DNA of 64,000 bases. It comes from Candidatus Limnocylindria bacterium (GTDB lineage Bacteria; Chloroflexota; Limnocylindria; QHBO01). Positions 4,324 through 40,932 of this stretch are shown here, in pieces. Position 1 is the stretch's first letter, and each line of letters starts with the position of its first letter. The stretch is taken from contig JBKJVN010000134.1 of assembly GCA_046717345.1 (NCBI GenBank), positions 3,070 through 67,069 on the forward strand. The letters run 5' to 3'. The notes under the pieces are model-generated. The model searched no databases. It had not been told where the DNA came from and was given only the letters and a program-made list of their open reading frames with translations. Both the position numbers and the translations under genes were made by a program.

Positions 4324-4389
4324 ATTTCGTGCGTGAATGTGTGGCGTGCCCGAGAGGACTCGAACCTCCGACCTTTAGGTCCGCAACCT
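4324..4389. repeat. Left copy of a 66-bp direct repeat (attL/attR-type). It duplicates the 3' half of tRNA-Arg plus 17 bp of its downstream flank.
   Basis: tttcgtgcgtgaatgTgtggcgtgcccgagaggactcgaacctccgacctttaggtccgcaaccta here, against the same string with one mismatch at 14303-14368. Identity stops inside the anticodon-loop region of the tRNA. Confidence 0.75.
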
Positions 4390-4499
4390 AGTAGCCACAG
4401 TCCCGGGCCATCCCGATGCGTCCCGTTCTGCCCTCGTTCGAGCGTGAATCGGGGGTCCGGTCGGGCCAAACGTCCCGGTCCGTCCCGGCATGTAACCGG

Positions 4500-4522
4500 T
4501 AATCCGTGAGCATTCTGTGAGC
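4500..4522. repeat. 23-bp direct repeat TAATCCGTGAGCATTCTGTGAGC (tandem GTGAGC hexamers spaced 11 bp). Second copy at 14236-14258. Putative integrase/Xis arm-type sites.
   Basis: Exact 23-nt identity between 4500-4522 and 14236-14258. Both lie just inside the att repeats. Confidence 0.4.
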
Positions 4523-4524
4523 GT

Positions 4525-4992
4525 TCAGAGCCGACTGTCTGCAATCACGTCAGCAAGCTTGTCTCGGGGGATCGGGGAGCAATGGGCTTTGCCTTCCGCG
4601 TCCCACCAGCACGCTTCACGGATCGGGTTCTGGCGGTGGTACACCGCGATCTCGTCCGAGACGAATGTGGTCCAGGCTTCCTGGCCTTCCTCGAGGGTCG
4701 CGCGATCGGCGTCACCGCCTGCGTTACCACCTCGGAGTGGTCGATTCCTATCGCCCGCTAGACCGAATGCTTCAATCCGAATTCGATTGCGGCGGCATTT
4801 CACCCACATACGCAGCCACAGGGCGTCCGGTCGCTGCAACTCGCCGAACTCCTTGCGAAGCCGGACTGTCGTGCAGCGAATTTCCGCCAGCCGTCGCCCG
4901 CGAACCCATCCACGCCAGCCGAACAGGGCTCCGATTGCGGCGAACAGAAGGGCGCCACCCGCCAGGATGATCTGACCTTCTTGTTGGGTCAT
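4525..4992 (-). CDS. Hypothetical membrane-anchored protein (N-terminal TM helix, basic region, possible bacterial PH-like domain)
   Basis: 155 aa. MTQQEGQIILAGGALLFAAIGALFGWRGW... First gene at the distal end of the island. Confidence 0.45.
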   Translation of the reverse strand: MTQQEGQIILAGGALLFAAIGALFGWRGWVRGRRLAEIRCTTVRLRKEFGELQRPDALWLRMWVKCRRNRIRIEAFGLAGDRNRPLRGGNAGGDADRATLEEGQEAWTTFVSDEIAVYHRQNPIREACWWDAEGKAHCSPIPRDKLADVIADSRL

Positions 4993-5061
4993 GGCTCGGG
5001 AAGCGTAACCCCCACCGGAGGGTGAGATTCCGGCGGGGGTGTGAAGGCCAGGCGGGGCGGC

Positions 5062-5502
5062 TTACTGCGCCGTTACCAGCCCGCCTAACTGCGCGGTCAC
5101 GGTCGTGGCGAGATCCTCGGTCGGACCAATCGGTGCGCTGGCCAGCTCGCTCTTCACCCGGTCCAAGTCTTGGAGGTTTGGCAGGCGGCGCCCCCGCATG
5201 GCCTCCGACAGGGCCTTCGTGAACTCATCGTCGTCCCGCACGGGCCAGTCCTCGGACACCCGCACCCGCACCGCGTCAAGCCAAGAGGTGAAGTCCCGGA
5301 CCGCCCAAACGCCGGACCCGATCTCGGGATCACTCCAGGGCTCGCGTTGCCAATGCCACAGGATGCCCCCCATGGCCTCTGGTGGGGCGAGTTTCTGCTG
5401 TGGGTTGGCGGTGACGGTCAGCGGCGCGACCTTCACCTTCACCGACCCTTTGGCGTCTTCTGCCAACGGAGCCGGCTTGCCTCGGAGAGCAGGGGTGCTC
5501 AT
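5062..5502 (-). CDS. Hypothetical protein (island cargo)
   Basis: 146 aa beginning MSTPALRGKPAP. Preceded by the GGAGGCGCT-ATG-AGCACC start cassette shared with the ORF at 6660-6848. Confidence 0.45.
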   Translation of the reverse strand: MSTPALRGKPAPLAEDAKGSVKVKVAPLTVTANPQQKLAPPEAMGGILWHWQREPWSDPEIGSGVWAVRDFTSWLDAVRVRVSEDWPVRDDDEFTKALSEAMRGRRLPNLQDLDRVKSELASAPIGPTEDLATTVTAQLGGLVTAQ

Positions 5503-5774
5503 AGCGCCTCCAGCATCCGCCGCTCGGCCAGCTCGTCGGCCAGGGCAGCCTCAAGTTGGTCGGCAATCTGCGGAGCCAGCCGCGCGGCCACCACGTCGAC
5601 GGCGGCCTCGTACCAGTTGGCCGCCCCTTCTGGCAGCCCCGCGTTGTACTCGAACCGCCCGAAGCTGCTCTTGATGCCGTCGACGAGATCCTTCATCGCT
5701 TCAGCGTCCCGTGAGAGCCCGCTGATGATCGGCGTTGTGGTGCTCATGGCACCTCCCAAACTGATGGCCGCCAC
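5499..5774 (-). CDS. Hypothetical small protein (island cargo)
   Basis: 91 aa, MSTTTPIISGLSRDAEAMKDL... Preceded by GGAGGTGCC. Its stop overlaps the next gene start (ATGA). Confidence 0.45.
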   Translation of the reverse strand: MAAISLGGAMSTTTPIISGLSRDAEAMKDLVDGIKSSFGRFEYNAGLPEGAANWYEAAVDVVAARLAPQIADQLEAALADELAERRMLEAL

Positions 5775-5879
5775 CGTGGGCTTAGCACGATGACGGCCAC
5801 AAACGAAACGACCGCTAAGCCCGGTCAGGGGCAGCGTAACACTGCATTAGCCCCGCGCCACTCTTTCGCGTGCGAAGCG

Positions 5880-6260
5880 TCAGACGGTCACACCAGGTAT
5901 GAGGCCAGCGACGGCGCGGTCGTGGAAGTCCCGAATCTGGTCGCGGAGGCGCTTTGCACGCCTCAACGTCCCGACGTCAATGGTGTGTGCAGGAACGTAC
6001 CGCGCTCGGCGCGACATTCCTTGAAGGCTCAAGTAGAAACGGGCGATCGCCGGGAACTCACGGTCAAGTGCGGCTTCGAGCCTCATGTGGTCGAGGGCCT
6101 CGGTGTCAATTCCGCGCCTCGCCAGCAGAGCGCTAGCGTAGTGAAGTGCCTCGTAGAACGTGACGGTGACGGCCCAGTCGAAGTGGCCAGCGTCCTCAAG
6201 GACCTTGGCGACTCTTTCATTCGCCTCAGCTCGAGCGACGTGCTCAGCCGGGCTCCCCAC
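5880..6260 (-). CDS. HEPN-domain-like protein (candidate toxin of a HEPN/partner pair)
   Basis: 126 aa. The helix AVTVTFYEALHYASALLARRG resembles the HEPN core helix. C-terminal RLRDQIRDFH fits an R-x(4-6)-H motif. GTG start overlaps the stop of the upstream ORF by 1 nt. Confidence 0.4.
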   Translation of the reverse strand: MGSPAEHVARAEANERVAKVLEDAGHFDWAVTVTFYEALHYASALLARRGIDTEALDHMRLEAALDREFPAIARFYLSLQGMSRRARYVPAHTIDVGTLRRAKRLRDQIRDFHDRAVAGLIPGVTV

Positions 6261-6577
6261 TACCGAAAGCTGTAGACCGAGGCTTCCGGAGGCACCCTAA
6301 AAGTGCCCGCATCTGAGGGGGTCACACAGAGAAGGTCGATCGCCGAATCTGGGAATTCGCGCCTGACCTCTAGTAGGCGCCCGAAGGCCACCTCTTCGGA
6401 GTCGAGAAACTCGTCGGGCGATCCCTCGATGGCCAACACACCCTTGGTGCCTGAAGCGGAATTCGTCAGCGCTAGACCTACCGCCCCTGGGACGGTCGAA
6501 AGCGTCGCGGAGAGCCGCTGCGGAATGGTGCTCTTGTCCGCTGGCGCCGCTAGATAGTCAAGGAGCGTCATAGCCAC
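6260..6577 (-). CDS. Hypothetical protein, possible cognate partner (antitoxin/MNT-like, degenerate) of the HEPN-like gene
   Basis: 105 aa. It contains ...DSAIDLLCV..., weakly reminiscent of the minimal nucleotidyltransferase D-x-D strand, but there is no canonical GS motif. It sits immediately upstream of the HEPN-like ORF and is translationally coupled to it. Confidence 0.35.
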   Translation of the reverse strand: MAMTLLDYLAAPADKSTIPQRLSATLSTVPGAVGLALTNSASGTKGVLAIEGSPDEFLDSEEVAFGRLLEVRREFPDSAIDLLCVTPSDAGTFRVPPEASVYSFR

Positions 6578-6632
6578 GAGTAGTGTCCCAAGTCGTGGTT
6601 GCGAAGCCTCCTAGGTGGTCCGGGCTACCTAT

Positions 6633-6650
6633 CTAGTACCTAAGTACTAG
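6633..6650. promoter_or_regulatory. AT-rich perfect inverted repeat CTAGTAC-CTAA-GTACTAG upstream of the HEPN-pair operon (candidate operator)
   Basis: 7-bp arms with a 4-bp spacer, in a locally AT-rich stretch (ctatctagtacctaagtactaggtctgtcaac) of a roughly 70% GC genome. It lies between the stop of ORF 6660-6848 and the start of ORF 6260-6577. Confidence 0.3.
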
Positions 6651-6659
6651 GTCTGTCAA

Positions 6660-6848
6660 CTAGCGATGCGGGCGAAAAGGACCGTCGTGGCCGGCGTGAC
6701 GACCCGCCGGCTGCTCGTGTACGCGGGCAAGGCCCCGCGCCGGTCGCCCGCCCTTACCCAGCGCGCCAGAGGCGTTCTGGAGGCCGTAGATGAGCTGCTC
6801 GCGTGCCTCGGGAACCGTTAGGACCCGCGGGGGTGTAGTGGTGCTCAT
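6660..6848 (-). CDS. Small hypothetical protein (62 aa), possibly antitoxin-like
   Basis: MSTTTPPRVLTVPEAREQLIYGLQ... GGAGG lies 4 nt before the ATG. The first 9 codons and the SD are near-identical to the starts of two other island ORFs. Confidence 0.35.
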   Translation of the reverse strand: MSTTTPPRVLTVPEAREQLIYGLQNASGALGKGGRPARGLARVHEQPAGRHAGHDGPFRPHR

Positions 6849-6961
6849 AGCGCCTCCAGGTCGGCGCAGATCGGCCTCCCGGAGAGGTAGCGAACGTCTG
6901 GGTATGGTACGCAGTCCGTCGAGCGTCTTCCCCCTTTGGCGGGCCTGCCCTATCCTCGATC

Positions 6962-7534
6962 GTGATGTCCGTTCGAAGGCCGTGGCTGCGGGCCCTGCTC
7001 GGTGCCGCGTGCGTGATCGCCGCGTGTACGCCGACCCCGGCGCCGGCGACATCCGTGCCTGCGACCGAGAGTCCCGCGGCGGAGGTCGGCAATCTGCCCA
7101 CGGGCTGCGAGCCGATCGACCTGCGGTCTCCCGCCGGGGAACCCGTCGATCTCAACGGGATCTGGGTCCAGGATGACAAAGAAGGCCGTCGACCATCGAA
7201 ATGGTGGATCCGGACCCTCGGGGATTGCATCTGGGGCACCGGCATCTTCGATGAGTACACGGAAGTGGTTATCGCCGCCGACCCGGGCCACGTTCAGACG
7301 TTCCACGGAACGGTCGCCAACGATTTCACAATCGACAGCGACATCGTCTTGGTAGGCCCACGATTTGTGTACTTAGAATTGCCGATTTTCGCCGAGGTCC
7401 GACTGCTCATCGAGTTCGACCCGGCAGGCGAGATCATCCTCCGTGAGGACCGCATCCCCGGCGTCCAGGGCCCGCGGTGCCTGGATCCGCTTAGTTTCTG
7501 CCCCGCGCCGCTCCTCCTCCGACCCAGCCGCTGA
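6962..7534 (+). CDS. Predicted secreted lipoprotein of unknown function
   Basis: 190 aa. Signal peptide MMSVRRPWLRALLGAACVIAAC with lipobox IAA-C, then a Pro/Thr-rich linker and a globular domain. It is divergent from the small ORF at 6848. Confidence 0.55.
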   Translation: MMSVRRPWLRALLGAACVIAACTPTPAPATSVPATESPAAEVGNLPTGCEPIDLRSPAGEPVDLNGIWVQDDKEGRRPSKWWIRTLGDCIWGTGIFDEYTEVVIAADPGHVQTFHGTVANDFTIDSDIVLVGPRFVYLELPIFAEVRLLIEFDPAGEIILREDRIPGVQGPRCLDPLSFCPAPLLLRPSR

Positions 7535-7838: not shown

Positions 7839-8363
7839 TCATCGCCTGACCTTGCCGTCGACGATCTTGTCGTCGCTGTAGCTGTACGGACGGGATTGGT
7901 CCTCCGGCACGCGCACCTCCGTCGAAGCGCGGGCGACAGACTGCCCGGACGGGAACTCGTTGCGCTGGACCCGGAGCGCCACTTCAGCCTGCTTCGCCTC
8001 GTCCAGGAGCGTGACCGCCGCGGCATGTTGCTGCCGGAGCTCCTGCAGAAGGCCGATGTTCGGCTTGCCGCCGACGACGATGCCGCCGGCAAGGAAACGC
8101 CGGTCAGCGCCAGCAGCGGCCTTGTCGATTTCCTCCGCGAGCCCCCGCTTTTTCAATGCCACCCGCTGTACCAGCAGCGCGGCGTCCTCGATGGCCGCGT
8201 CGAAGCGCGCCAGCATGTTTCGGGTGGCCTCTGACGGGCGACGGACGCCGGTCAGACGGCGCTCGGCGACCCTCCATTCCCACGCGGTCCATGCGGGGTT
8301 CAGGAAGCCATCAGGGCCGACCTTCGGCGGCTCCTGGTCGGTGATCGTGGTCTGTTCGGTCAC
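7839..8363 (-). CDS. Hypothetical protein (island, downstream of the TerS module)
   Basis: 174 aa. GTG start is preceded by AAGGAGAT. No recognisable motif. Confidence 0.45.
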   Translation of the reverse strand: MTEQTTITDQEPPKVGPDGFLNPAWTAWEWRVAERRLTGVRRPSEATRNMLARFDAAIEDAALLVQRVALKKRGLAEEIDKAAAGADRRFLAGGIVVGGKPNIGLLQELRQQHAAAVTLLDEAKQAEVALRVQRNEFPSGQSVARASTEVRVPEDQSRPYSYSDDKIVDGKVRR

Positions 8364-8380: not shown

Positions 8381-8824
8381 CTACTGGAGGAGCCGGTCGC
8401 CGAGCTGGCGCCGGATTGCGTACAGGTCGTGGCGGTCATTCCCCAGCTCATCGAGCTCGATGGCGTCCGCTGTCATTCCGAGCCTCTTGGCCAGGGCCGC
8501 ATCGAGTTGGAGGCGGCCTGACAGGACGAGCTCACGCAATTTCTGATTGAAGCGGTTGCGCTTGTCGAGCTGCGCGCGGGCCCAGTCCCAGATCTCGCCG
8601 GACTTGACGTCCACGACTTCGCCGAGCCGGTCGGGGCCCATCTTTGTGCCCGGTGGGGTCCAGAGCAGGTCCTCGGGCTCCCAGCTGGCGACCGCGGGGT
8701 GCGGGACCCAGCCGACGACGCTCAGGCCGTCAGGGAGGAGCATCGCGGTTCGGGTGAAGCGGGCCGGGTAGACGCCGCTGACGCTGCGCGGCACGGTCGG
8801 GTCGTATTGAGGTCTGTAAGTCAT
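8381..8824 (-). CDS. Hypothetical protein (island)
   Basis: 147 aa. ATG preceded by AGGAGCACCTG. Confidence 0.45.
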   Translation of the reverse strand: MTYRPQYDPTVPRSVSGVYPARFTRTAMLLPDGLSVVGWVPHPAVASWEPEDLLWTPPGTKMGPDRLGEVVDVKSGEIWDWARAQLDKRNRFNQKLRELVLSGRLQLDAALAKRLGMTADAIELDELGNDRHDLYAIRRQLGDRLLQ

Positions 8825-8833
8825 CAGGTGCTC

Positions 8834-9271
8834 CTAACTCTTGAGGCGACGCGCGAAACGCGACGCGAATCCGACTGCGGCCGCCTCGTCGGCGGCTACA
8901 TCCGCGGTATAGGTGCGGCTTGACGGCCACGCCGTGCCGTAGGCGGCGTGCCAGGCGGCGTGGGCGCATTCGTGGGCCACGGTCTCGGCCAGCGCGGCGC
9001 GGTCCAGGTCGGCGCTGACCCAAATCTCACCTGGCCGCCACGACCGAAACTCCCCGTGGAGTTGCTGGTCATCGCTCCACGCTCGGAGGCTCCACAAAGC
9101 AGGCTTCTCGGCCCGAACGAAGAACTTGACCGTCGGCGTGGCGATGCCCAGCTCCGCAGCGGCCAGGCGCGCGATGTTCTCCGCGTAAATGCGGATCAGG
9201 CTGCCTGGTCCGGTGGGGATTTGGAGGTACTCGATGCGCTTCGTGGCGGTCGGCATGGGATCTTCCTTCAC
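8834..9271 (-). CDS. HExxH zinc-metallopeptidase-like protein (SprT-like / ImmA-like motif)
   Basis: 145 aa with ...LAETVAHECAHAAWHAAYG... (HExxH) near the C-terminus. Confidence 0.5.
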   Translation of the reverse strand: MKEDPMPTATKRIEYLQIPTGPGSLIRIYAENIARLAAAELGIATPTVKFFVRAEKPALWSLRAWSDDQQLHGEFRSWRPGEIWVSADLDRAALAETVAHECAHAAWHAAYGTAWPSSRTYTADVAADEAAAVGFASRFARRLKS

Positions 9272-9627
9272 TTGGTCAGGACGGCGGCCCGCCAGGCCCA
9301 GCGGCCCGGCTCCCGTTCCGTGGCCGCTTCGGCGCGGATGGTGTCGGCCTCAGCCGGCGATAGCTCGCCCGAGTCGATGAGGAACCGCAGCCGCGCGGAG
9401 GCGCGGGAGACGTAGGCGGCGTCTTCGCGGAGGTGGCAATACAGGTCGATGCCCGGCGATTCGGCCAGGTCAGGTCGGGTGGACTCGAAGAGCCACCACG
9501 AGTAGGGCCGTAGGCCGAGCCCGGTGACCATCCACGACGCGATCGCCTCCTGGCGCTGATCGGCCCACTGGCGCGCCTCATTGAGGTCGCGATTCGTCCG
9601 TCGCCGGCTGCGCCTCATCCGTGCCAC
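9268..9627 (-). CDS. Hypothetical protein (island)
   Basis: 119 aa. Overlaps its neighbours by 4 and 13 nt, suggesting operon coupling. Confidence 0.4.
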   Translation of the reverse strand: MARMRRSRRRTNRDLNEARQWADQRQEAIASWMVTGLGLRPYSWWLFESTRPDLAESPGIDLYCHLREDAAYVSRASARLRFLIDSGELSPAEADTIRAEAATEREPGRWAWRAAVLTK

Positions 9628-9971
9628 CTCGACGGTGCGCGGCTGATGGCCGGCGCTTCGAGGTCCAGGCCGAGCTCGCGGAGGGCCCGCATGTGGAGCG
9701 TGGTCGCATCGCGGGCCATCGCGACGGCGGGGTTCGGTTTCAGACCGAATCGGCCGTCGATCAGGATCCCGTACTTGGCGATCGCCGCCTGAGCGGCCCG
9801 GAGACGGTCGAGCTGCTCACACGCCCGCTCGAGGATGGCCAGGTGGTGCGCCTCGAGGGTGTAGTCGGTGGTCACGTCGCGCCACAGGCGTCGAGCCTCA
9901 GTCGAGAGGGTCTTCGGAGCCGGCGGAATGGTCACCGCGACGGGCTGGCGAACCGTTGCGGCTCTACTCAT
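9615..9971 (-). CDS. terS: Phage terminase small subunit, P27 family
   Basis: 118 aa. LSTEARRLWRDV...LEAHHLAILERACEQLDRLRAAQAAIAKYGILIDGRFGLKPNPAVAMARDATTLHMRALRELGLDLEAP matches the P27 TerS pattern (LS.EA...W......L.......L...C.....EA...I...G.....G..K.NP.......A......ELGLTP). Confidence 0.7.
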   Translation of the reverse strand: MSRAATVRQPVAVTIPPAPKTLSTEARRLWRDVTTDYTLEAHHLAILERACEQLDRLRAAQAAIAKYGILIDGRFGLKPNPAVAMARDATTLHMRALRELGLDLEAPAISRAPSRWHG

Positions 9972-10089
9972 GGTCGGTCCGGTGGTACCGATTCAACGGG
10001 CACCACGCATGTTGCGAATGCGGTAGGCCGGGGTGACGGCGCGACCGCCCCGCTGGTGATCCGATGCCGCCTGCCATACAGACCCCTGG

Positions 10090-11460
10090 TCACGCCGGCA
10101 CCCCCTCATCGAATGCCCAGTCCGCAGCCACCCGTTCGGCAACTGGCTCGCTGTGGTCAGGGTCCGTGGCACAGATATCGCAGCGCCAGGCGTCGCCGAC
10201 CTTGCGATGGCTGAGCTGGTGAGCCGAGTAGTCCTGACAGACGACGGTCGGACTTGAGGACACCGCCCGGAGCCCCGTCGCGTGCCCGTTACCGCTCCCC
10301 CCTGCTACGGGCCTTTCACCCGCTACCTTGCTACCGGCACGCTCAGTTTCGTGCTCAGTCGTAGCGGGGTAGCGAGTTAGAGGGGTCTCTGCGGGGGGAG
10401 AGAGGTAGCGGCTGAAGGCGTCGGTGAACTGGTCCGCCGGGTACCCCCGGACGTTGACCCCGTTGACCTTCATCTGCCGGGCACGGATGCGATATGGGCG
10501 AAGCAGATAGGCGAGCCCCTCCGCTTTCAGTGGGCGCCCGTGGCGGTAGTCTTCCGCCCAAGGCCGCTCTTCGAGAGCATGCAGCGCGTCGAGCAGCTCA
10601 GACGTCGGGATCCGTTCCGTCGCCTTCTCCGCGAGGACGTCCCGGATATCCGACAGCACCATGACCGATCGGCTCTCGTCTTCCACTTCGGCCGACCCTG
10701 CGAGAGTCAATGCGGCCTTGCGAGCGCGTGCCGGCCAATCCGCGCCCGCGGCGTCGGCCAGGGCCAGCAGCGGCTCCCAGCTATCGGCGGCGCGGTCATC
10801 GAGTGCATCGGGCACGTCGACCAGCTCGGGGAGGGTCAGGTCTACTAGCGATTCCCACCATTCGCGGACCGCCGTCGCCTCCAGCTCGGCGACACGGAAC
10901 CGGAACCGCTCTAGTGGCTCGTGGCGGGCACGACGCTGGAGGGAGATGACGACGGCCCGATCCTGGATCGTGTCGGGCAAGCGACCGATGCTGGCGACGG
11001 CTTTGGGGCAGTAGCAGTCAAAGCTTTCGACGCGCATCTTCTTTCCGTCGCCAACGACTCGATAGAACGGCACGCCGCGGCGGTACCCGTTATTCAGCAG
11101 ACCGCGGATATCCTCCGAGGCGTCCGATCCGCGCTTGTTGAAGATCGTGTCGGCTTCATCCAGAAGCAGGGTCGGGTGGCGCTCGTCGATGATGCGGAAC
11201 AGCGCGGCCAACGATGCGCCGGCCATCGGAACCGGCCCCCGGACAATCAGGCGCAGAGCCTCCAGGCACCTACTCTTGCCGGACCGTTTCTCGGGCGACT
11301 GAACCAGGAGATAGGCCGTCGTGTCGCCCTGGTCGAACAGCCAGGTATGGCCGACCCACAGCGCGACGGCATCGGCCTGCTCGGCATTAGCGAAGACGAC
11401 ATAACGGCGCAGGAAAGTGGCCGTGGCGTCGAGGGATTGGGCGGCGTCGGATCGAGTCAT
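10090..11460 (-). CDS. DUF3631-family P-loop NTPase (replication/primase-associated protein of actinobacterial integrated elements) with a C-terminal Cys-rich tail
   Basis: 456 aa. The N-terminus MTRSDAAQSLDATATFLRRYVVFANAEQADAVALWVGHTW is the typical DUF3631 start. Walker A is SPEKRSGKSR and Walker B is TLLLDEADT. The C-terminus has CQDY..H..H......C..C motifs. Confidence 0.65.
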   Translation of the reverse strand: MTRSDAAQSLDATATFLRRYVVFANAEQADAVALWVGHTWLFDQGDTTAYLLVQSPEKRSGKSRCLEALRLIVRGPVPMAGASLAALFRIIDERHPTLLLDEADTIFNKRGSDASEDIRGLLNNGYRRGVPFYRVVGDGKKMRVESFDCYCPKAVASIGRLPDTIQDRAVVISLQRRARHEPLERFRFRVAELEATAVREWWESLVDLTLPELVDVPDALDDRAADSWEPLLALADAAGADWPARARKAALTLAGSAEVEDESRSVMVLSDIRDVLAEKATERIPTSELLDALHALEERPWAEDYRHGRPLKAEGLAYLLRPYRIRARQMKVNGVNVRGYPADQFTDAFSRYLSPPAETPLTRYPATTEHETERAGSKVAGERPVAGGSGNGHATGLRAVSSSPTVVCQDYSAHQLSHRKVGDAWRCDICATDPDHSEPVAERVAADWAFDEGVPA

Positions 11461-11846
11461 TCAGGCCACCGGCTCAGAAGCCCTCGTGCCTCCCCGTGAC
11501 GACGATATGCGTCCCGACTTTCGAGCAGCCGAGTTACTCGCCACAGCCAAGCTTCGGCCCTGACGCTCCAGGGTGCGTAGCGGTCGGACGGGACATCGAG
11601 GCCAGCGGCACGGGCGGCCGCTCGAACGTCCTCAATGGCCAGAAACAAACGGCGTCGGGCTCGCGCCTCGGGGTCGGTCACAAGGGCACCCGTTCGCTGC
11701 GGCACCTGGCGGCCAACCGGAGGGCCCAAGCGGCCTCTCGCGGAGCGTCGACGTCGACCGCGGGCGGTATCAACTCGAGGCACCGGGCTCCGCTGGTCAG
11801 ATAGATTTCGGCGCGAAGGCGCTGCCGAGCCGCGTACGCGACCCAC
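11457..11846 (-). CDS. Hypothetical protein (Arg-rich N-terminus; the true start may be internal)
   Basis: ORF fills the gap between the Xis-like gene and the DUF3631 gene. Its stop overlaps the downstream start (ATGA). Confidence 0.3.
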   Translation of the reverse strand: MGRVRGSAAPSRRNLSDQRSPVPRVDTARGRRRRSARGRLGPPVGRQVPQRTGALVTDPEARARRRLFLAIEDVRAAARAAGLDVPSDRYAPWSVRAEAWLWRVTRLLESRDAYRRHGEARGLLSRWPE

Positions 11847-11861
11847 GATTCGCCGCGCGGT

Positions 11862-12134
11862 CTATGCTGCGGGGCGGTGGTCGGTCGTGGTCGTAACACG
11901 ATTCGATCCTTGGGCGCTCGCCTTCAGCGGGGCGGGCGCCCTCTTTGTTTCGGCCTGCGGCTCGTCGGCGAGGAACCGCTCAACGGAGCGGCGCGGCACG
12001 CGAATCGACCGTCCGACCCGGACGCCCCACAATTCGCCTGACTGGACGAGCGCGTAGGCGGCGTTCCGGCCCACGCGAAGCAGCTTCGCCACTTCAGTGA
12101 CGGTCAGAACGTCGGGTGCATCCGCGATGGTCAT
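11862..12134 (-). CDS. xis: Excisionase-family / AlpA-like helix-turn-helix DNA-binding protein
   Basis: 90 aa. LTVTEVAKLLRVGRNAAYALVQSGELWGVRVGRSIRVPRRSVERFL is the classical excisionase-type HTH_17 signature. Confidence 0.65.
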   Translation of the reverse strand: MTIADAPDVLTVTEVAKLLRVGRNAAYALVQSGELWGVRVGRSIRVPRRSVERFLADEPQAETKRAPAPLKASAQGSNRVTTTTDHRPAA

Positions 12135-12396
12135 GCAACGGCCGGTGCCCGTTCTGCCCGCCGTGGCGTTCGACGCTGGGCCACCAGTCCGGTGAGCAGC
12201 CGTCCGTAAGCCACCGCCGGCTCACCATGCGGGACCCGCTCACCATTCTCCCAGCGGAGGATCGTTCCCGGCGAAACGCCCACGCTCTTTGCCACTTCGC
12301 CGAGCGATAGCCCGGCGTTCAGTCGAATCGGCCGAGCTGCTCCCGTTCCGACCAGAGCCCGGACGCGGGCCAGCTCCTGGAGAGTCTCGATGTCCA
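12131..12396 (-). CDS. XRE-family HTH transcriptional regulator (candidate island repressor)
   Basis: IRLNAGLSLGEVAKSVGVSPGTILRWENGERVP is the XRE/Cro HTH. The start was chosen at MDIETLQ (88 aa). A longer ORF extends to 12451. Confidence 0.6.
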
Positions 12397-12423
12397 TGGG
12401 TGGCACACTACCCGATGCGGGCA

Positions 12424-12437
12424 CCTTTGTGCAAAGG
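12424..12437. promoter_or_regulatory. Perfect inverted repeat CCTTTG-TG-CAAAGG in the divergent XRE / int-operon control region (candidate operator)
   Basis: Seen directly in the sequence. A TTGACA hexamer lies at 12492-12497, 30 nt upstream of the ATG at 12527, which may indicate a leaderless promoter. Confidence 0.35.
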
Positions 12438-12526
12438 GTTGGCTTATCCATTGTTTCCGACTAATCGGGAACGTTCTGCTCAGACTATGTATTGACAGAG
12501 CATGCCCGCAGCGTCACCATGCCCCC

Positions 12527-13045
12527 ATGACGCCAGACGGCCCGCCGAACCCAAGCGTAGAAGAGGACTGGGGTACCTGGGAGGATGACACTGGAACGCG
12601 ACGGCCCTACATCCTTCGCTGGCGCTTCGTCGGAGACCGTTTCATGTGCTACTCCGTCGAGTTGCAGTCGACCGAGGACCAACCGATCACCGCGGCCCTG
12701 CTCCGCAAGTTTCCAGTCGGCGAGCTGATGGCTAGCGCCCGGCGCCACCACAAGGATCTCGAGCGGTGGATTGCGGAGTCGATTCCTGAGCAGCGTACTG
12801 AGGCGCTCGAACGTGCTGAGGCCTGGGAGGGGTCCATGGCCGGCCGGTCCGGGCCGAAAGGGTACGGCGCCGCCCACTTCGCGGAGGTGGCGGTCATCTA
12901 TCGGGAAGAGGCAATGCGGGGCAACAAGCCGACCCAGGCGGTTGCCGACCACTTCGTCGTGAGCAAGTCGGCGGCTGCGAAGTGGGTCGCCCGCGCACGC
13001 ACCATGGGCCTGTTGCCCGCGGCGCAGAAAGGGAAGGCCGGATGA
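12527..13045 (+). CDS. Hypothetical protein with a C-terminal HTH. First gene of the rightward int operon.
   Basis: 172 aa. C-terminal ..KPTQAVADHFVVSKSAAAKWVARARTMGLL.. is helix-turn-helix-like. Its stop overlaps the integrase ATG (ATGA). Confidence 0.45.
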   Translation: MTPDGPPNPSVEEDWGTWEDDTGTRRPYILRWRFVGDRFMCYSVELQSTEDQPITAALLRKFPVGELMASARRHHKDLERWIAESIPEQRTEALERAEAWEGSMAGRSGPKGYGAAHFAEVAVIYREEAMRGNKPTQAVADHFVVSKSAAAKWVARARTMGLLPAAQKGKAG

Positions 13046-14238
13046 GACAAGGCCGAGTGTTCCGACGCTGCACAAAGTGCGGCAGCGCCGTCCAGGAGCG
13101 CCACTGCCAGCGATGCGGCTCCGACCGCGCGACGTGGAGCTACATGGTCGATATCGGCCCGTCAGGGGCGACCCGCGACCAGCGCAGCCGGGGCGGCTTC
13201 CCGACGAAGGCTGAGGCGATCGCCGCGATGCACGGGCTCCAGGCGGCAGCCGCATCCGGCAGCTTTGTCGAGCCGTCGCGCCGGACTGTCGCCCACTACC
13301 TAGCCGAGTGGCTCCAGGCCGTCCGGCCGCCACTCGTCCGAGGCGGGACCTGGCGCGGCTACGAGCTCAACGTTCGCCGGCACCTCGTCCCGCGGCTCGG
13401 TGGCGTGCCGCTCCAGCAGCTCACCAGGGCGACGGTGAAGGCCGCCTACCAGGATCTCGCCCTCCATGGCTCCCCTACTGGCCGCCCGCTGAACCCGAAG
13501 ACGGTCCACAACATCCACCTGACGCTGAGAAAGGCGCTCAGGGATGCCGTTGAGGACCGACTCTTGTCACACAACTCGGCGGACGGTGCCCATCGGCTCC
13601 ACGCCGACCGCCCGGAGATGCGGACCTGGACCGCGGAGCAGGTATCAGCCTTCCTGACTGCCGTGGCCGACCGTGACGACTTTGCGCTCTGGCGCCTGGC
13701 AGCCACCACGGGGATGCGGCGCGGGGAGCTGGTCGGCGTGCGTCGAACCGATATCGACCTCGAGGCCGGCACCGTTCAGGTTCAGCAGCAGCGGGTCCGG
13801 GGCATGAGCGGCTACACCTACGGCCCACCGAAGACGGCCCGCGGCCGGCGCTCCATTCCGATTGACTCTGGCACGATCGCAGCCCTGCGCGCCCACCTAC
13901 GCGCCCAGGGCGTCATCCGGCCAGCTTTCGGCCTTGGCTACCAGGATGCCGGCCTCGTGTTCGCGCGGGCCGATGGGACGCCTCTGGATCCGGATTCGGT
14001 AAGCGGGGCGTTCGAGCAGATCGTGCGGCGGCTCGGGCTGCCGGTCATCCGGCTCCACGATCTCAGACACACCCACGCGACGCTCGCGCTCGCGGCGGGC
14101 GTGCATCCGAAGGTGGTACAGGAACGGCTGGGCCACTCCAGCGTGACTATGACCCTGGACCTCTACTCGCATTCGGTGCCTGGCATGCAGGCCGATGCGG
14201 CGGATCGGATCGCGGCCCTGATCGACGCCGCTGGGTAA
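13042..14238 (+). CDS. int: Tyrosine-type site-specific integrase with an N-terminal zinc-ribbon plus an AP2-like arm-binding domain
   Basis: N-terminal CTKCGSAVQERHCQRCG. Catalytic core carries R (GMRRGEL), HDLRHTHAT (HxxR) and a TLDLYSH tyrosine. It ends 82 nt from the intact tRNA-Arg. Confidence 0.85.
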   Translation: MRQGRVFRRCTKCGSAVQERHCQRCGSDRATWSYMVDIGPSGATRDQRSRGGFPTKAEAIAAMHGLQAAAASGSFVEPSRRTVAHYLAEWLQAVRPPLVRGGTWRGYELNVRRHLVPRLGGVPLQQLTRATVKAAYQDLALHGSPTGRPLNPKTVHNIHLTLRKALRDAVEDRLLSHNSADGAHRLHADRPEMRTWTAEQVSAFLTAVADRDDFALWRLAATTGMRRGELVGVRRTDIDLEAGTVQVQQQRVRGMSGYTYGPPKTARGRRSIPIDSGTIAALRAHLRAQGVIRPAFGLGYQDAGLVFARADGTPLDPDSVSGAFEQIVRRLGLPVIRLHDLRHTHATLALAAGVHPKVVQERLGHSSVTMTLDLYSHSVPGMQADAADRIAALIDAAG

Positions 14239-14269
14239 TCCGTGAGCATTCTGTGAGCATTCGGCTCAC
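14236..14269. repeat. Right copy of the 23-bp TAATCCGTGAGCATTCTGTGAGC repeat, plus an inverted GCTCAC hexamer 11 bp further on
   Basis: GTGAGC-attct-GTGAGC-attcg-GCTCAC at helical (11-bp) spacing. It overlaps the int stop codon. Confidence 0.4.
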
Positions 14270-14302: not shown

Positions 14303-14368
14303 TTTCGTGCGTGAATGGGTGGCGTGCCCGAGAGGACTCGAACCTCCGACCTTTAGGTCCGCAACCTA
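14303..14368. repeat. Right copy of the 66-bp att direct repeat (the 3' half of the intact tRNA-Arg plus flank)
   Basis: See 4324-4389. Confidence 0.75.
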
Positions 14369-14395
14369 ACGCTCTATCCGCTGAGCTACGGGCAC
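14320..14395 (-). tRNA. tRNA-Arg, anticodon read as GCG (G37, encoded CCA)
   Basis: Reverse complement GTGCCCG-TA-GCTC-AGCGGATA-GAGC-G-TTAGG-TTGCGGA-CCTAA-AGGTC-GGAGG-TTCGAGT-CCTCT-CGGGCAC-G-CCA folds as a canonical 76-nt cloverleaf. Confidence 0.8.
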
Positions 14396-18462: not shown

Positions 18463-19737
18463 TTAGCCGAGACGTTCGGCCCCCGGCAGGTATGGGCGCA
18501 GCACCTCCGGCACGCGGATGGACCCATCCGGCTGGAGGTGGGTCTCGAGCAGGGCCGCGACCGTCCGTGCCAGGGCCACCCCCGAGCCGTTGAGGGTGTG
18601 GACCAACTCGGGCCGGGCATCGGCTGAGGATCGGTATCGGACGTTCATCCGGCGCGCCTGGAAATCGGTGTAGTTCGAGCACGAGCTGACCTCCAGCCAG
18701 CGGCCCACCCCCGGCGCCCAGGCTTCCAGGTCGTAGCCGCGAGCCTGGGAGAACCCGACGTCGGCCGTGCAGCGCTCGACCGTCCGGTACGGCAGCTCGA
18801 GTGCCTCCAGCACGACCTCCGCATCGCGGGTCAGGGACTCGAGCTCATCGTCGCTGGACTCGGGAGCGACGAATTTGACCAGCTCCACCTTGTCGAACTG
18901 GTGGACCCGCAACAGGCCCCGCGTGTCCTTGCCGGCGGCGCCCGCTTCGCGCCGGAAGCAGGGGGTATACGCGACGTAGCGGACGGGCAGCGAGCCGGGG
19001 GGCAGGATCTCGTCGCGGTGGATGTTCGTGACCGGCACCTCGGCCGTGGGGGCCAGGTACAGGCCATCGCGCTCGACGACGTACATCTGGCCCTCCTTGT
19101 CCGGCAGCTGCCCCGTGCCCCGGGCCGACTCGGCGGTGACCAGGATCGGCGGCCAGACCTCGGTGTAGCCGCGAGAGGCAGCCATATCCAGGAACAGACC
19201 GATGAGCGCGCGCTGGAGGCGCGCGCCGGCCCCGGTGTAGAGCACGAATCCGGAGCCACCGATCTTGGCCCCGCGCTCGAGGTCGAAGAGCTTCAGGCGG
19301 GCACCAATCTCCCAATGCGGCGGGCGCTCCCCGGGAGGCAGCGGCTCGCCCCACGTGCGCACCACCGGGTTGTCCTCCGGGCCGCGGCCGTCCGGCACGG
19401 CGTCGCGGGGCGGATTGGGCACGAGCAGGAGGTCTGCTTCGATGGCCGCCTCCACCTCCGCCAGCTCACCGTCCAGGGCGTCGATCCGCTCGCCGAGCTG
19501 GCCGAGGGACGCCTTGCGCGCCTCCGCATCGGCGGCCTGCCCCGAGCGCATCAGCTCCCCCACCGACCGACTGCCCTCGTTGCGCTCGTGCTTGGCGGCG
19601 TCCGCCTCGGCCAGCAGGGAGCGGCGTCGCTCGTCCGCCGCGAGGAGCCGGTCGATCACCTGCGGCCCCTCGCCCTTGCGGGCGATGGCGCGCTTGACGG
19701 CCTCAGGGTCGTCCCGGATGAGCTGGATCGAGATCAC
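18463..19737 (-). CDS. serS: Seryl-tRNA synthetase
   Basis: GTG start is preceded by GGAGGGGTGGC. Class II motifs TPCFRREAG and GSGVALARTVAALLE. Its start overlaps the lysK stop (GTGA). Confidence 0.9.
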   Translation of the reverse strand: MISIQLIRDDPEAVKRAIARKGEGPQVIDRLLAADERRRSLLAEADAAKHERNEGSRSVGELMRSGQAADAEARKASLGQLGERIDALDGELAEVEAAIEADLLLVPNPPRDAVPDGRGPEDNPVVRTWGEPLPPGERPPHWEIGARLKLFDLERGAKIGGSGFVLYTGAGARLQRALIGLFLDMAASRGYTEVWPPILVTAESARGTGQLPDKEGQMYVVERDGLYLAPTAEVPVTNIHRDEILPPGSLPVRYVAYTPCFRREAGAAGKDTRGLLRVHQFDKVELVKFVAPESSDDELESLTRDAEVVLEALELPYRTVERCTADVGFSQARGYDLEAWAPGVGRWLEVSSCSNYTDFQARRMNVRYRSSADARPELVHTLNGSGVALARTVAALLETHLQPDGSIRVPEVLRPYLPGAERLG

Positions 19738-21341
19738 GCCACCCCTCCTGCGGCCCGGAGTCGCTCGACGACGAACGGCCGGTCCAGCGAGGCAAGGAGC
19801 CAACCGGCCCGAGGCCCGGAAGGCCGTCCGAGAAACGCAGCGTACAGGGCGGCAAACCCCGCCCCCGCCCCGAGGCCGCGCTCTGTGGCGGCCGCGAAGA
19901 TGGCCGACTGGAGACCCTCCCCCACCCATTCGGTGGCGGGCAGCAGGCCGAGGGCGTCGGCCAACGCCGCGAGGAACCCGCGCTGGTCCGGCGTCAGGTC
20001 GGCCACCGCCTCGGGCACCGCGTCGCGGCGGACCTCGACCCGCGCCTCGGGCGGGGCATACGTATCCAACCAGGCCCGGACGGCGCGGGTGCGCTCCTCC
20101 AGGATCGCGAGCTCGCGCTCGGTGAGCGGTCCACCCTTCTCCGCCGCCACGCGCTCCGGAACGTCGATCCCCGGCAGTTGGACGAGCAGCGCCAGGTGAG
20201 CGAACGCCGGCCGGTGGGCGGCGGCCTCAGTGGCCACGTCTGCCTCGGCATCGACCAGGGAGGCGGCGAAGATCCGATCGGCATCGGCAGGCAACTCGCC
20301 CCGGACGGGGCGGCCGGCGGTCGTGGCCGCCAAGCGGTCGAACTCGTCGACCAGGCGCGGGATGGCATCGGTCTGGTCCGGGTCGAAGTCGAACGCCACG
20401 TTGGGGCGGTGGCGCACGAAGAGCATCCGCAGCTCGTTGGGCGGCATGACGGCTGCGATCTCGTGGGCGGCCACGCCCCGCCCGCGAGACGTGCTCATCT
20501 TGCGGCCGCCGATGTTGATGAACTCGTACGGCACGTTGATCGGCGGCTCTCGCTCGAAGATCTGACGTGAAATCGCATCGGAGCGGTCGCGTGACCCGCC
20601 AGCCGTGGCAAGGTCCTTGCCGCAGCCCTCGATGGTGACCCCGAACAGGCTCCATCGGGCCGCCCAGTCGACGTTGAACAGAAGCTTGGAAGTGCCGCCG
20701 AACGGCGAGACCCGCCCCGCGTGGCCGCAGCCAGTCGCCCATTCCACAGCGTCCGGTTGGCAGGTGTACGCCACCCCGTCGCCATCCCAGTCGGTGGGCA
20801 CCGTGGTCCCGATCCGCCCGCAGGACTCGCAAATGACGGACAGGGGCAACCAGCCGGGCTCCTTGTCCACGTGGCTGACGTCGCGGTAGATGGTGCGGAT
20901 GGCGTCGGCGGCGTCCAGGGCGGCGCGGATGTATCGGTCCATCAATCCCCCGCCGTACACCTCGCTCATCCAGTACATCTCCGGGTGCAGGCCGAGCGGC
21001 TCGAAAGTGCCGAGGAACAGCTCCCCGACGAAGTGGCGGGCGTAGCTGGCGGCGTTGGAGCCGGCGGGCGGCGGCACGGCGGACAGCGGAACGCCCATGT
21101 ATCGGTCGACCGCGTCGGGGGTGAGGAGAGCCGCGGTATCCATGGGGTCGAGGTCGTCGACCCCGTACCGGAAGGTGGCCTCCACCCCCACTCGGCGCAG
21201 TGAGCGCCAGATCTCGTCGTGGATGACCGGGCCTCGGAGGCTGCCGACGTGGACCGTGCCGGAGGGGGTCTTCGAGTCGTTGACGACCTGTGAAGTCCCC
21301 GATTCAGCCGCCCTGGCCGCGATCTCGTCGGCCCAGAACAC
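19734..21341 (-). CDS. lysK: Lysyl-tRNA synthetase, class I (archaeal-type LysK)
   Basis: 535 aa. HIGH-like TVHVGSLRG and KMSKS-like RKMSTSRG. It has no class II motifs. Confidence 0.8.
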   Translation of the reverse strand: MFWADEIAARAAESGTSQVVNDSKTPSGTVHVGSLRGPVIHDEIWRSLRRVGVEATFRYGVDDLDPMDTAALLTPDAVDRYMGVPLSAVPPPAGSNAASYARHFVGELFLGTFEPLGLHPEMYWMSEVYGGGLMDRYIRAALDAADAIRTIYRDVSHVDKEPGWLPLSVICESCGRIGTTVPTDWDGDGVAYTCQPDAVEWATGCGHAGRVSPFGGTSKLLFNVDWAARWSLFGVTIEGCGKDLATAGGSRDRSDAISRQIFEREPPINVPYEFINIGGRKMSTSRGRGVAAHEIAAVMPPNELRMLFVRHRPNVAFDFDPDQTDAIPRLVDEFDRLAATTAGRPVRGELPADADRIFAASLVDAEADVATEAAAHRPAFAHLALLVQLPGIDVPERVAAEKGGPLTERELAILEERTRAVRAWLDTYAPPEARVEVRRDAVPEAVADLTPDQRGFLAALADALGLLPATEWVGEGLQSAIFAAATERGLGAGAGFAALYAAFLGRPSGPRAGWLLASLDRPFVVERLRAAGGVA

Positions 21342-40264: not shown

Positions 40265-40846
40265 CTACCGCTCGGACGAGCGGCCAATGAAGGTCAGGAA
40301 CTCGGCCCGGGTCTTGGGGTCGCTCCGAAATGTGCCGAGCATGGCGGAGGTGACCATGGTGGCGCCGGGCCGGCGCACCCCGCGCATGGCGATGCACAGG
40401 TGGGTCGTCTCGAGCACGACCCCCACCCCCTTGGGTTCCAGTCGGGTCATCAGGAAATCGGCGATCTGCTGGGTCAGCCGCTCCTGGATCTGGAGCCGGT
40501 GGGCGAACAGGTCCACCACACGCGGAATCTTCGACAGACCGATGACCGTGCCCCGCGGCAGGTATCCGACGTGGGCGCGACCAAAGAACGGGATCAGGTG
40601 GTGCTCGCACAGGGAGTACAGCTCGATGTCGCGGACGACGACCATCTCGTCGTAGTCGACGTCGAAGGCTGCGCCTTGCAGGAGCGTGTCGGGGTCAGTC
40701 CGATACCCTGCGGTCAGCTGCTCCAGGGTGCGCCGCACCCGACCCGGCGTGCCGCGCAGACCGTCGCGGTCGGGGTCCTCGCCGATCTCGGCCAGGAGGG
40801 TCCGCACCGCCGCCTCGAGTGGAGATGTCCGCGCATCGGGGTCCAT
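40265..40846 (-). CDS. folE: GTP cyclohydrolase I
   Basis: ELYSLCEHHLIPFFGRAHVGYLP and the following FolE blocks. Confidence 0.85.
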   Translation of the reverse strand: MDPDARTSPLEAAVRTLLAEIGEDPDRDGLRGTPGRVRRTLEQLTAGYRTDPDTLLQGAAFDVDYDEMVVVRDIELYSLCEHHLIPFFGRAHVGYLPRGTVIGLSKIPRVVDLFAHRLQIQERLTQQIADFLMTRLEPKGVGVVLETTHLCIAMRGVRRPGATMVTSAMLGTFRSDPKTRAEFLTFIGRSSER

Positions 40847-40932
40847 GCGCCGATGCTAGCAGCCGATCATGGAGCCCCGGCCGGGCTGGCCCGCTCTTGG
40901 GGGCCGCGCTATCGTCAGGTCGTGATCACTGG

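Follow-up and report, generated by a model that had tools for sequence, protein, structure and literature searches.

A tRNA-integrated island with a small terminase operon and no recognisable large terminase: a candidate phage satellite

The island and its genes

We analysed a 64,000-nucleotide (nt) stretch of contig JBKJVN010000134.1 (assembly GCA_046717345.1, positions 3,070 to 67,069 of the forward strand), called the window here. It has a G+C content of ~68% and holds a 9.98-kb island that is integrated at tRNA-Arg. The island is bounded by attachment (att) sites, a 66-nt direct repeat with 1 mismatch (65/66 nt identical) whose copies lie 9,978 nt apart. A preliminary description of this DNA had picked out a gene for a lone small terminase subunit (TerS) of P27 type, followed by four small open reading frames (ORFs), here called A to D, and had proposed that they form a packaging-redirection module of a phage satellite. 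The main features are these, in window coordinates:

4325-4390: attL, 66-nt direct repeat made of the duplicated 3' part of tRNA-Arg and 17 nt of flank
4498-4526 (+): tandem GTGAGCATTC pair just within the attL end of the island, candidate arm-type sites
7839-8363 (-): ORF D, charged and Ala/Glu/Arg-rich, last gene of the operon
8381-8824 (-): ORF C, with a homologue in a module of another island (L001)
8834-9271 (-): ORF B, putative small zinc metallopeptidase (HExxH...E conservation)
9268-9627 (-): ORF A, all-helical protein with an Arg-rich N-terminus, coupled to TerS (homologues, AlphaFold2)
9615-9971 (-): small terminase subunit TerS, Terminase_4/P27 type (Pfam, PHROG)
9985-10034 (-): conserved non-coding element upstream of terS, boxes 1 and 2 (alignment of upstream DNA)
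10090-11460 (-): RepAM-type replication initiator (DUF3631), 456 amino acids (aa) (PF12307, 6.3e-44)
11862-12134 (-): HTH_17 DNA-binding protein, excisionase/AlpA-like (PF12728, 1.5e-13; phrog_66 'excisionase and transcriptional regulator', 6.3e-10)
12131-12451 (-): XRE-family helix-turn-helix (HTH) regulator, first gene of a long minus-strand operon (HTH_3, 3.3e-9; HTH_31, 1.4e-8)
12527-13045 (+): 172-aa ORF upstream of the integrase gene and divergent from the XRE gene, with a coding-type G+C at third codon positions (GC3) of 0.80
12982-14238 (+): tyrosine integrase (Phage_integrase, 3.5e-23, SAM_3, Arm-DNA-bind_4; phrog_1, 2.8e-74)
14234-14262 (+): second GTGAGCATTC tandem, near attR and at the stop codon of the integrase gene, candidate arm-type sites
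14303-14368: attR, other copy of the 66-nt direct repeat, which overlaps tRNA-Arg(gcg) in its 3' part
14320-14395 (-): tRNA-Arg(gcg)

Read inward from attR, the order is tyrosine integrase, divergent regulatory region, XRE gene, excisionase (Xis)-like HTH gene, RepAM and the TerS operon. The GTGAGCATTC pairs lie just within both ends of the island in direct orientation, and we consider them candidate arm-type integrase-binding sites. The island has several marks of a phage-inducible chromosomal island (PICI). It is a discrete integrated element in the range of ~5-20 kb with att sites and an integrase. It has its own regulators and an autonomous replication initiator (XRE HTH, HTH_17 and RepAM/DUF3631). 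It carries a packaging-hijack determinant, TerS, unaccompanied by a large terminase subunit (TerL) or virion or lysis genes.

Scans with Pfam and PHROG gave no large terminase, portal, capsid, tail or lysis family match for any ORF of the island, whose largest are the 456-aa RepAM and the 418-aa integrase. The Phage_capsid and Peptidase_S78 families that characterise capsid-encoding satellites (phiRv1-like elements and capsid-forming PICIs, cf-PICIs) were not found in it, nor did any of its ORFs have the FtsK/SpoIIIE-type Tra domain of actinomycete integrative conjugative elements (AICEs). Outside the island the scan covered ten ORFs, each at least 400 aa long and picked by its coding-type codon-position G+C; four further coding-type ORFs of 421-523 aa were left out. 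No TerL, structural or lysis family was found among the ten. Eight are housekeeping genes, including those for seryl-tRNA synthetase (SerRS), class I lysyl-tRNA synthetase (LysRS), H+-PPase, Dfp, GDH and methylmalonyl-CoA mutase, and two encode polytopic membrane proteins. The scan is able to detect TerL, since it finds one beside a distant TerS homologue at another locus (L039). The lone P27-type TerS of the preliminary description therefore holds for the island and the ten large ORFs scanned around it.

The small terminase and its host lineage

TerS scores 42.9 bits against Pfam Terminase_4 (PF05119; gathering cut-off 24.7, E=6.8e-11), with residues 27-105 aligned to profile positions 6-86 of 98. 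A second match, at 2.4e-14, is to PHROG 83 ('terminase small subunit'). The gene call thus passes the profile search that had been proposed as its check, apart from the stricter NCBIfam model discussed below. Because the Pfam and PHROG assignments both stand above threshold we accept family-level membership. By its profile scores the protein is a Terminase_4 relative rather than a strict TIGR01558 equivalog. A sequence-profile search of the PDB with TerS matched no solved structure, and an AlphaFold2 model built from 27 homologues has a predicted local distance difference test score (pLDDT) of 85.

A collection of 5.8 billion proteins holds 27 relatives of this TerS, nearly all of them metagenomic. 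The closest from named genomes belong to metagenome-assembled genomes (MAGs) of Candidatus (Ca.) Limnocylindria/Limnocylindrales, at 72%, 53% and 51% identity. Since these are the nearest named genomes, the host is probably a member of the Chloroflexota rather than of the Actinobacteria. The preliminary description had suggested actinophage genomes as the place to look for helper candidates. That suggestion was probably misdirected, because the nearest named genomes are Ca. Limnocylindria and the best phage match reaches only 31% over half of the protein.

ORF A, the partner of TerS

The stop codon of terS overlaps the start of ORF A, either as ATGA at 9618-9615 or with the start of A placed at the GTG at 9627. 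ORF A directly follows TerS in 11/11 informative distinct loci, meaning those with upstream sequence (the window, L001, L003, L012, L041, L042, L044, L045, L046, L048 and L049; L041 contributes a C-terminal fragment of TerS only). Where the junction is readable from gene calls or alignment ends, the two genes overlap by 1-4 nt or lie within ~10 nt of each other.

The family of A is small. An exhaustive HMMER search of 1.84 billion representatives found 31 relatives only, and a metagenome scan with ORF A returned four short contigs only. Its members share the motifs G-x-G-x-RP-x2-WW-x2-ES-x-RPDL and RLR-x-L-x3-GEL-x3-E and a C-terminal WR. No PHROG is matched by any of the 32 members, only one of which weakly matches a Pfam domain of unknown function (DUF). 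The preliminary description had suggested structure prediction for the four ORFs. For A this gave a confident all-helical AlphaFold2 model (pLDDT 92.4, predicted template modelling score 0.80), with no significant structural match in the PDB (best E=2.1) or BFVD (best E=3.7); the sequence of A had no PDB match either. Within the close clade A diverges faster than TerS, with 42-58% identity vs 68-79%.

For ORF A the better description, from gene order, is obligate genomic partner of this TerS clade. Most simply, it would act with TerS as a co-factor or would inhibit the TerS of a helper.

A further ORF bears on how widely the pairing is spread. At 10317-10673 of L018, a Bacillota MAG, the ORF right after a distant TerS (41%) weakly matches the A profile (E=1.7e-4). 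To judge by this match, the pairing of TerS with A may reach past the high-GC clade.

A conserved element upstream of terS

We aligned the DNA upstream of terS from islands in which the preceding genes differ. Two conserved boxes emerged. Box 2, GTGGTGCCCGTTGAATCGGTAC, is 22 nt long (9985-10006) and ends 13 nt before the terS ATG. Box 1, ACCCCGGCCTAC, is at 10023-10034, 17-29 nt further upstream. The consensus is GTGGnGtCg..TGaA.cgGTAC for box 2 and ACCCcg.C.CAC for box 1. The 22-nt element occupies the same place before terS in nine distinct islands, whatever gene precedes it.

A matrix built from six sites recovers the element at the expected place in loci outside the training set, with scores of 26.0 in L009-L011 and 26.8 in L042/L044; L007 gives a weak score of 15.8. 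Off target, the highest score over 569 kb, both strands, was 20.6. An exact degenerate search of IMG/VR for the element returned no match. The element moves with terS and not with the replicase. In cos-type phages the recognition sequences of TerS lie near the start of terS. By analogy the element is a candidate cos/pac packaging-recognition site. A promoter or operator of the operon is a candidate role as well.

The TerS clade in other islands

Wherever the flanking DNA of a TerS relative with at least 49% identity was recovered, the relative lies in a small element that lacks TerL. Between these elements the integrase (tyrosine or serine) and the replicase (RepAM, D5 primase, Prim-Pol/DUF3987 or AAA_25) are interchangeable. 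TerS, A and the upstream element recur in many unrelated island backbones. The gene orders are as follows:

L003-L006: serine integrase, RepAM, TerS, A, 84-aa ORF, HK97-family capsid
L049: serine integrase, AAA_25, TerS, A, 137-aa ORF, capsid
L001/L002: tyrosine integrase, D5 primase, TerS, A-like, B, 162-aa charged protein, C, 105-aa ORF
L046: Prim-Pol/DUF3987, TerS, A
L048: TerS, A, 213-aa ORF, S78 protease
L009: AAA_25, TerS, then S78 protease
L007: TerS, then S49 peptidase and tape-measure protein

L013, L014 and L028 are likewise without TerL. More distant homologues (35-43%) serve as a control. L039 has an ordinary phage layout with TerL and L040 has a portal gene, and in L035 and L038 TerS stands with a capsid gene and without TerL.

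This distribution bears on whether the island could be an eroded prophage that kept terS by chance. Cryptic prophage fragments beside tRNA genes are common, and the island has an integrase plus one phage gene for packaging. The island does not look eroded. Its att repeats are intact at 65/66 nt. The operon genes are all intact, with a coding-type codon signature and Shine-Dalgarno (SD) sites. It has a plasmid/AICE-type replication initiator instead of phage replication genes, the same compact TerL-less layout recurs in many independent loci, and A-D are in no phage genome searched. We regard chance retention as very improbable.

Two arrangements among the relatives deserve separate mention. 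At 2367-5125 of L009 and 360-2313 of L048 an S78 prohead protease accompanies this TerS clade and a capsid gene is not recognisable in the available sequence, which is an odd pairing for a satellite. At 958-6963 of L007 and 10001-13102 of L016, TerS relatives are followed by a tape-measure protein, again without TerL.

The integration, regulation and replication backbone

The true start of the integrase is probably near 13042. The 172-aa ORF at 12527-13045 matched no family above cut-off; from its position it is a candidate regulator or repressor of the switch region. Searches of the island for consensus sigma-70 promoters, terminators and iterons found nothing above chance.

Downstream of the Xis-like gene lies a 129-aa ORF (11457-11861) whose GC3 of 0.62 is below its first-position value (GC1) of 0.79, a non-coding pattern. 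These ~400 nt possibly do not code for protein and could be, for instance, an origin or a regulatory region; no iterons were found. RepAM comes next, then a gap of 118 nt, then TerS, A, B, C and D.

DUF3631 is the domain of RepAM from the AICE pMEA300 (PMC3218068). Among plasmids, the island's RepAM has its nearest relatives in two from Streptomyces, 13.5-14.3 kb in size, whose DUF3631 proteins are 41-43% identical to it. The one we examined (L050, NZ_CP108827, 13.5 kb) is an excised AICE with an integrase, HTH, DUF3631, Prim-Pol, FtsK/SpoIIIE and SpdB genes. It has the same integrase-HTH-RepAM backbone together with FtsK/Spd, and therefore the transfer module is the swapped part. Judged by gene content, the island is an AICE-type backbone on which a terminase operon takes the place of the conjugation module.

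One can ask from this backbone whether phages are involved at all. The island might be a phage-independent integrative and replicative element, with its Terminase_4 protein serving only as a DNA-binding regulator or partition-like factor. In favour of this, the integrase-Xis-RepAM backbone is that of AICEs, and proteins of the TerS kind are small, HTH-like and bind DNA; no helper is known, and this TerS scores below the NCBIfam equivalog cut-off. However, the island has no FtsK/SpoIIIE Tra, Spd, relaxase or other transfer gene, and the Pfam and PHROG assignments of TerS are above threshold. The clade is tied to virion assembly by sister islands, where the same TerS is found with genes for an HK97-type capsid or prohead protease. 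We therefore judge a phage-independent element unlikely.

ORFs B, C and D

The preliminary description had listed four co-directional ORFs downstream of terS, and they stand at those places, each overlapping its predecessor or preceded by an SD site. ORFs A-D have GC3 of 0.82-0.87 and second-position G+C of 0.45-0.58, resembling the flanking host epimerase gene, and overlapping alternative frames lack the pattern. Because of this coding-type pattern and the junctions we take the four to be real genes. The stop of ORF A overlaps the GTG of ORF B at 9271 (GTGA); an equally plausible start of B is the ATG at 9256 behind GAAGGAAG. ORF C starts 7 nt behind AGGAG and ORF D 7 nt behind AAGGAG. As read from these junctions, TerS-A-B-C-D is a translationally coupled operon.

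ORF B carries an HExxH motif, as had been reported, in the form HECAH at residues 100-104. Its homologues follow A in L041 (about 65-66% identity), L042 and L001 (41%), and the proteins of the window, L041 and L001 all keep H100, E101, H104 and E129. Members of the family weakly match four zincin families (SprT-like, Peptidase_M78, DUF6782 and DUF2268), all below cut-off; for ORF B itself the scores are 16.6 for SprT-like (cut-off 25.6) and 16.5 for Peptidase_M78 (cut-off 22). The sequence had no PDB match. On its conserved residues ORF B is a putative small zinc metallopeptidase. It lies ~2.9 kb from the XRE gene, within the terS operon, and since it does not adjoin that gene the adjacency of an ImmR/ImmA-type pair is not seen.

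ORF C has one clear homologue, at 43% identity, in the equivalent module of L001. A word-indexed search returned ORF C itself only, and it had no family, phage or PDB match. A weak match of an ORF in L045 had raised the idea that C is a degenerate HK97-type (S78) prohead protease. We rejected this link: the hhalign probability is 15.7% over 28 columns, and neither ORF C, its L001 homologue nor the L045 ORF itself reaches S78 in Pfam. ORF D had no homologue in any search. The L001 module equivalent to that of D has a non-homologous 162-aa charged protein.

No Pfam or PHROG family matched ORFs A-D above cut-off. None of the four was found in 50,697 GenBank phage genomes, and A, B and C had no match in IMG/VR. 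To find them beside TerL in a complete phage would have made this an ordinary prophage fragment; none of these genomes has them.

B, C and D, and possibly A, may be accessory cargo, for example for anti-phage defence or competition, co-transcribed with terS on an island that is still a satellite. PICIs commonly carry defence or accessory genes downstream of the packaging genes. In sister islands B-D are replaced by a capsid gene (L003, L049) or an S78 protease (L048, L009). Moreover B-D match no head-morphogenesis family, and D lacks any homologue. Against cargo, no PADLOC defence model matched A-D or the cargo genes at the other end of the island, and the coupling of B-D to terS by SD sites and overlaps is tight. 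B follows A in four islands, and in L001 B, C and a charged protein occur together. That the trio returns, at only ~41-43% identity, next to an integrase and a replicase of other kinds points to a functional unit linked with TerS-A. The slot of B-D holds capsid or protease genes in sister islands, so a role in helper assembly or control is plausible, and we treat B-D as co-expressed accessory factors. We consider cargo a real possibility, and somewhat less probable than not.

A proposed satellite that redirects packaging

We argue that the island is an integrated, self-replicating, PICI-like phage satellite whose own TerS redirects the TerL and capsids of a helper to island DNA. We give this a probability of roughly 0.6. 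The island would excise and replicate after induction, presumably by a helper phage. Its TerS, probably with the coupled protein A, would recognise a site on the island, for which the best candidate is the element upstream of terS. TerS (with A) would then recruit the large terminase of the helper, and island DNA would be packaged in capsids made by the helper. The putative zinc peptidase B, together with C and D, would be co-expressed and may act on the helper or on assembly.

Several points weigh against this scenario. No helper phage was identified, and the best TerS match among sequenced phages is at 31% identity: the only match in 50,697 GenBank phages is from Corynebacterium phage EmiRose, over 53% of the protein. 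TerS misses the equivalog cut-off of NCBIfam TIGR01558 (sm_term_P27), with 36.8 vs 45.6 bits. Among 350,542 PDB chains the top two matches of the TerS model are both to the HK97 small terminase (8pop), at a non-significant E of 1.1-1.7, with template modelling (TM) scores of 0.44-0.57 and a probability of up to 0.77; the modelled fold is consistent with a small terminase and not conclusive. ORF A is without detectable similarity to any packaging protein, and the identities of TerS and A across loci are not significantly correlated (Spearman 0.35, p=0.07). Excision, replication and encapsidation of the island are themselves predictions from its genes, and B-D could be cargo unrelated to packaging.

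The satellite module of the preliminary description therefore survives in part. TerS stands without TerL in an att-bounded island and its close clade is TerL-less throughout, which fits a satellite. The role suggested for the four ORFs, capsid-size redirection or helper interference, is not supported by these results.

A bolder proposal is that TerS-A and the upstream element form a portable packaging-specificity cassette that turns unrelated backbones into satellites. A would be a co-factor with a new fold that either completes the island's own TerS or blocks that of the helper, B-C-D would manipulate the helper through a protease, and the island would be the first satellite described from the Limnocylindria. 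Taken whole, this is doubtful. If true, the B-C-D block would be a previously unknown protease-based control of helper capsid assembly or induction.

Good characterisation of phage satellites is confined to a few Proteobacteria and Firmicutes, and descriptions from Actinobacteria are just starting. With the island and its relatives, hijacking by TerS would reach into high-GC lineages of soil and freshwater that are uncultured. The integrase-Xis-RepAM backbone suggests that a satellite can arise when the transfer module of a conjugative element is exchanged. The cis element, TerS and A would make a compact, testable cassette for re-targeting terminases of the HK97/P27 type. The A family is rare, confidently folded and without structural match, and is thus a clean candidate for a novel factor in packaging or interference.

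The cargo end and the surrounding window

The remaining ~3 kb of the island (4525-7534) is a cargo end with a predicted lipoprotein, a HEPN protein and its partner, and three small ORFs:

6962-7534 (+): predicted lipoprotein, 190 aa, with a signal peptide and a lipobox-like IAAC
6260-6577 (-): 105-aa ORF upstream of the HEPN gene
5880-6260 (-): HEPN-domain protein (Pfam 22.4 bits vs cut-off 22)
5499-5774 and 5062-5502 (-): two small ORFs
4525-4992 (-): membrane-anchored ORF

The lipoprotein gene is the only plus-strand gene of the cargo half and is convergent with ORF D; its product could be a surface or exclusion factor. The HEPN gene lies directly downstream of the 105-aa ORF with a 1-nt overlap. 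The two are possibly a HEPN/MNT-type toxin-antitoxin pair carried as cargo.

Two features outside the island may be recorded. At 40819-45175 the window has strong, opposite AT-skew peaks (-0.28 and +0.28), which come from two convergent genes for the polytopic membrane proteins. These are 708 and 752 aa long, without a Pfam match, and are not phage-related. At 19734-21341 (-) the class I LysRS gene (tRNA-synt_1f, 3.3e-74) lies beside that for SerRS. Among taxa this type of LysRS is distributed patchily, and it could be of use in placing the host.

Comparison with known systems

The HK97 small terminase gp1 (8pop) is the best structural match of the TerS model, with a TM of 0.57 over 101 columns at an identity of 11-14% and a Foldseek E above 1. 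P27-type TerS proteins are typical of HK97-like cos/HNH packaging systems (Kala et al. 2014, cited in PMC10085698). Unlike in HK97, there is no HNH endonuclease or TerL gene beside the island's TerS.

A close likeness is to PICIs and the Staphylococcus aureus pathogenicity islands (SaPIs) of pac type that have their own TerS. They share the ~10-kb att-bounded form beside a tRNA gene, an integrase with a divergent regulatory region, a Xis-like gene and an autonomous replication initiator. They also share a TerS of their own without TerL, the absence of virion genes, and small unknown genes co-transcribed with terS. The differences are substantial. The replication protein is RepAM/DUF3631 (AICE-type), not the PICI Pri-Rep, and TerS is of P27/HK97 type. 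Homologues of CpmA/B, Ppi, PtiA/B/M and Rpp are absent from the island. Its late block begins with terS, where theirs ends with it. The island's host probably belongs to the Chloroflexota (Limnocylindria), and its induction by, and dependence on, a helper are predictions.

With AICEs (pMEA300; Streptomyces NZ_CP108827) the island shares the integrase, HTH/Xis and RepAM (DUF3631) backbone, with RepAM 41-43% identical. AICEs carry FtsK/SpoIIIE TraB and Spd spread genes, whereas the island has the terminase operon there.

The phiRv1 and phiRv2 elements of Mycobacterium are, like the island, small integrated elements. phiRv1 presumably has a DUF3631-type replication protein and a P27-type TerS without TerL. 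Sister loci L003 and L049, with a serine integrase, RepAM or AAA_25, TerS, A and an HK97-family capsid, have what we take to be the phiRv1 layout. The island itself differs in having a tyrosine integrase at a tRNA gene and no capsid or prohead-protease gene, with B-C-D in that slot. Elements of the phiRv1/phiRv2 type are classed as PICIs by SatelliteFinder (PMC10085698, PMC10654092). The arrangement of TerS and a tape-measure protein in L007 and L016 resembles that of the EPIP satellites of Mycolicibacterium (PMC12822802).

The marine minimalist TerS satellites, the PICMIs (phage-inducible chromosomal minimalist islands) and the VEIMEs (integrative mobile elements encapsidated in virions), likewise have an integrase, an AlpA/Xis-like HTH, a replicase and their own TerS. 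They too lack recognised capsid-remodelling genes, and redirection of packaging by TerS alone is a plausible model. Host phyla and protein families differ, and here TerS is always coupled to the conserved protein A, followed by a putative peptidase. TerS-bearing satellites are already established; the island would add one from an unusual lineage and with an AICE-type backbone, and what is new in it is an undescribed TerS partner family and a conserved cis element.

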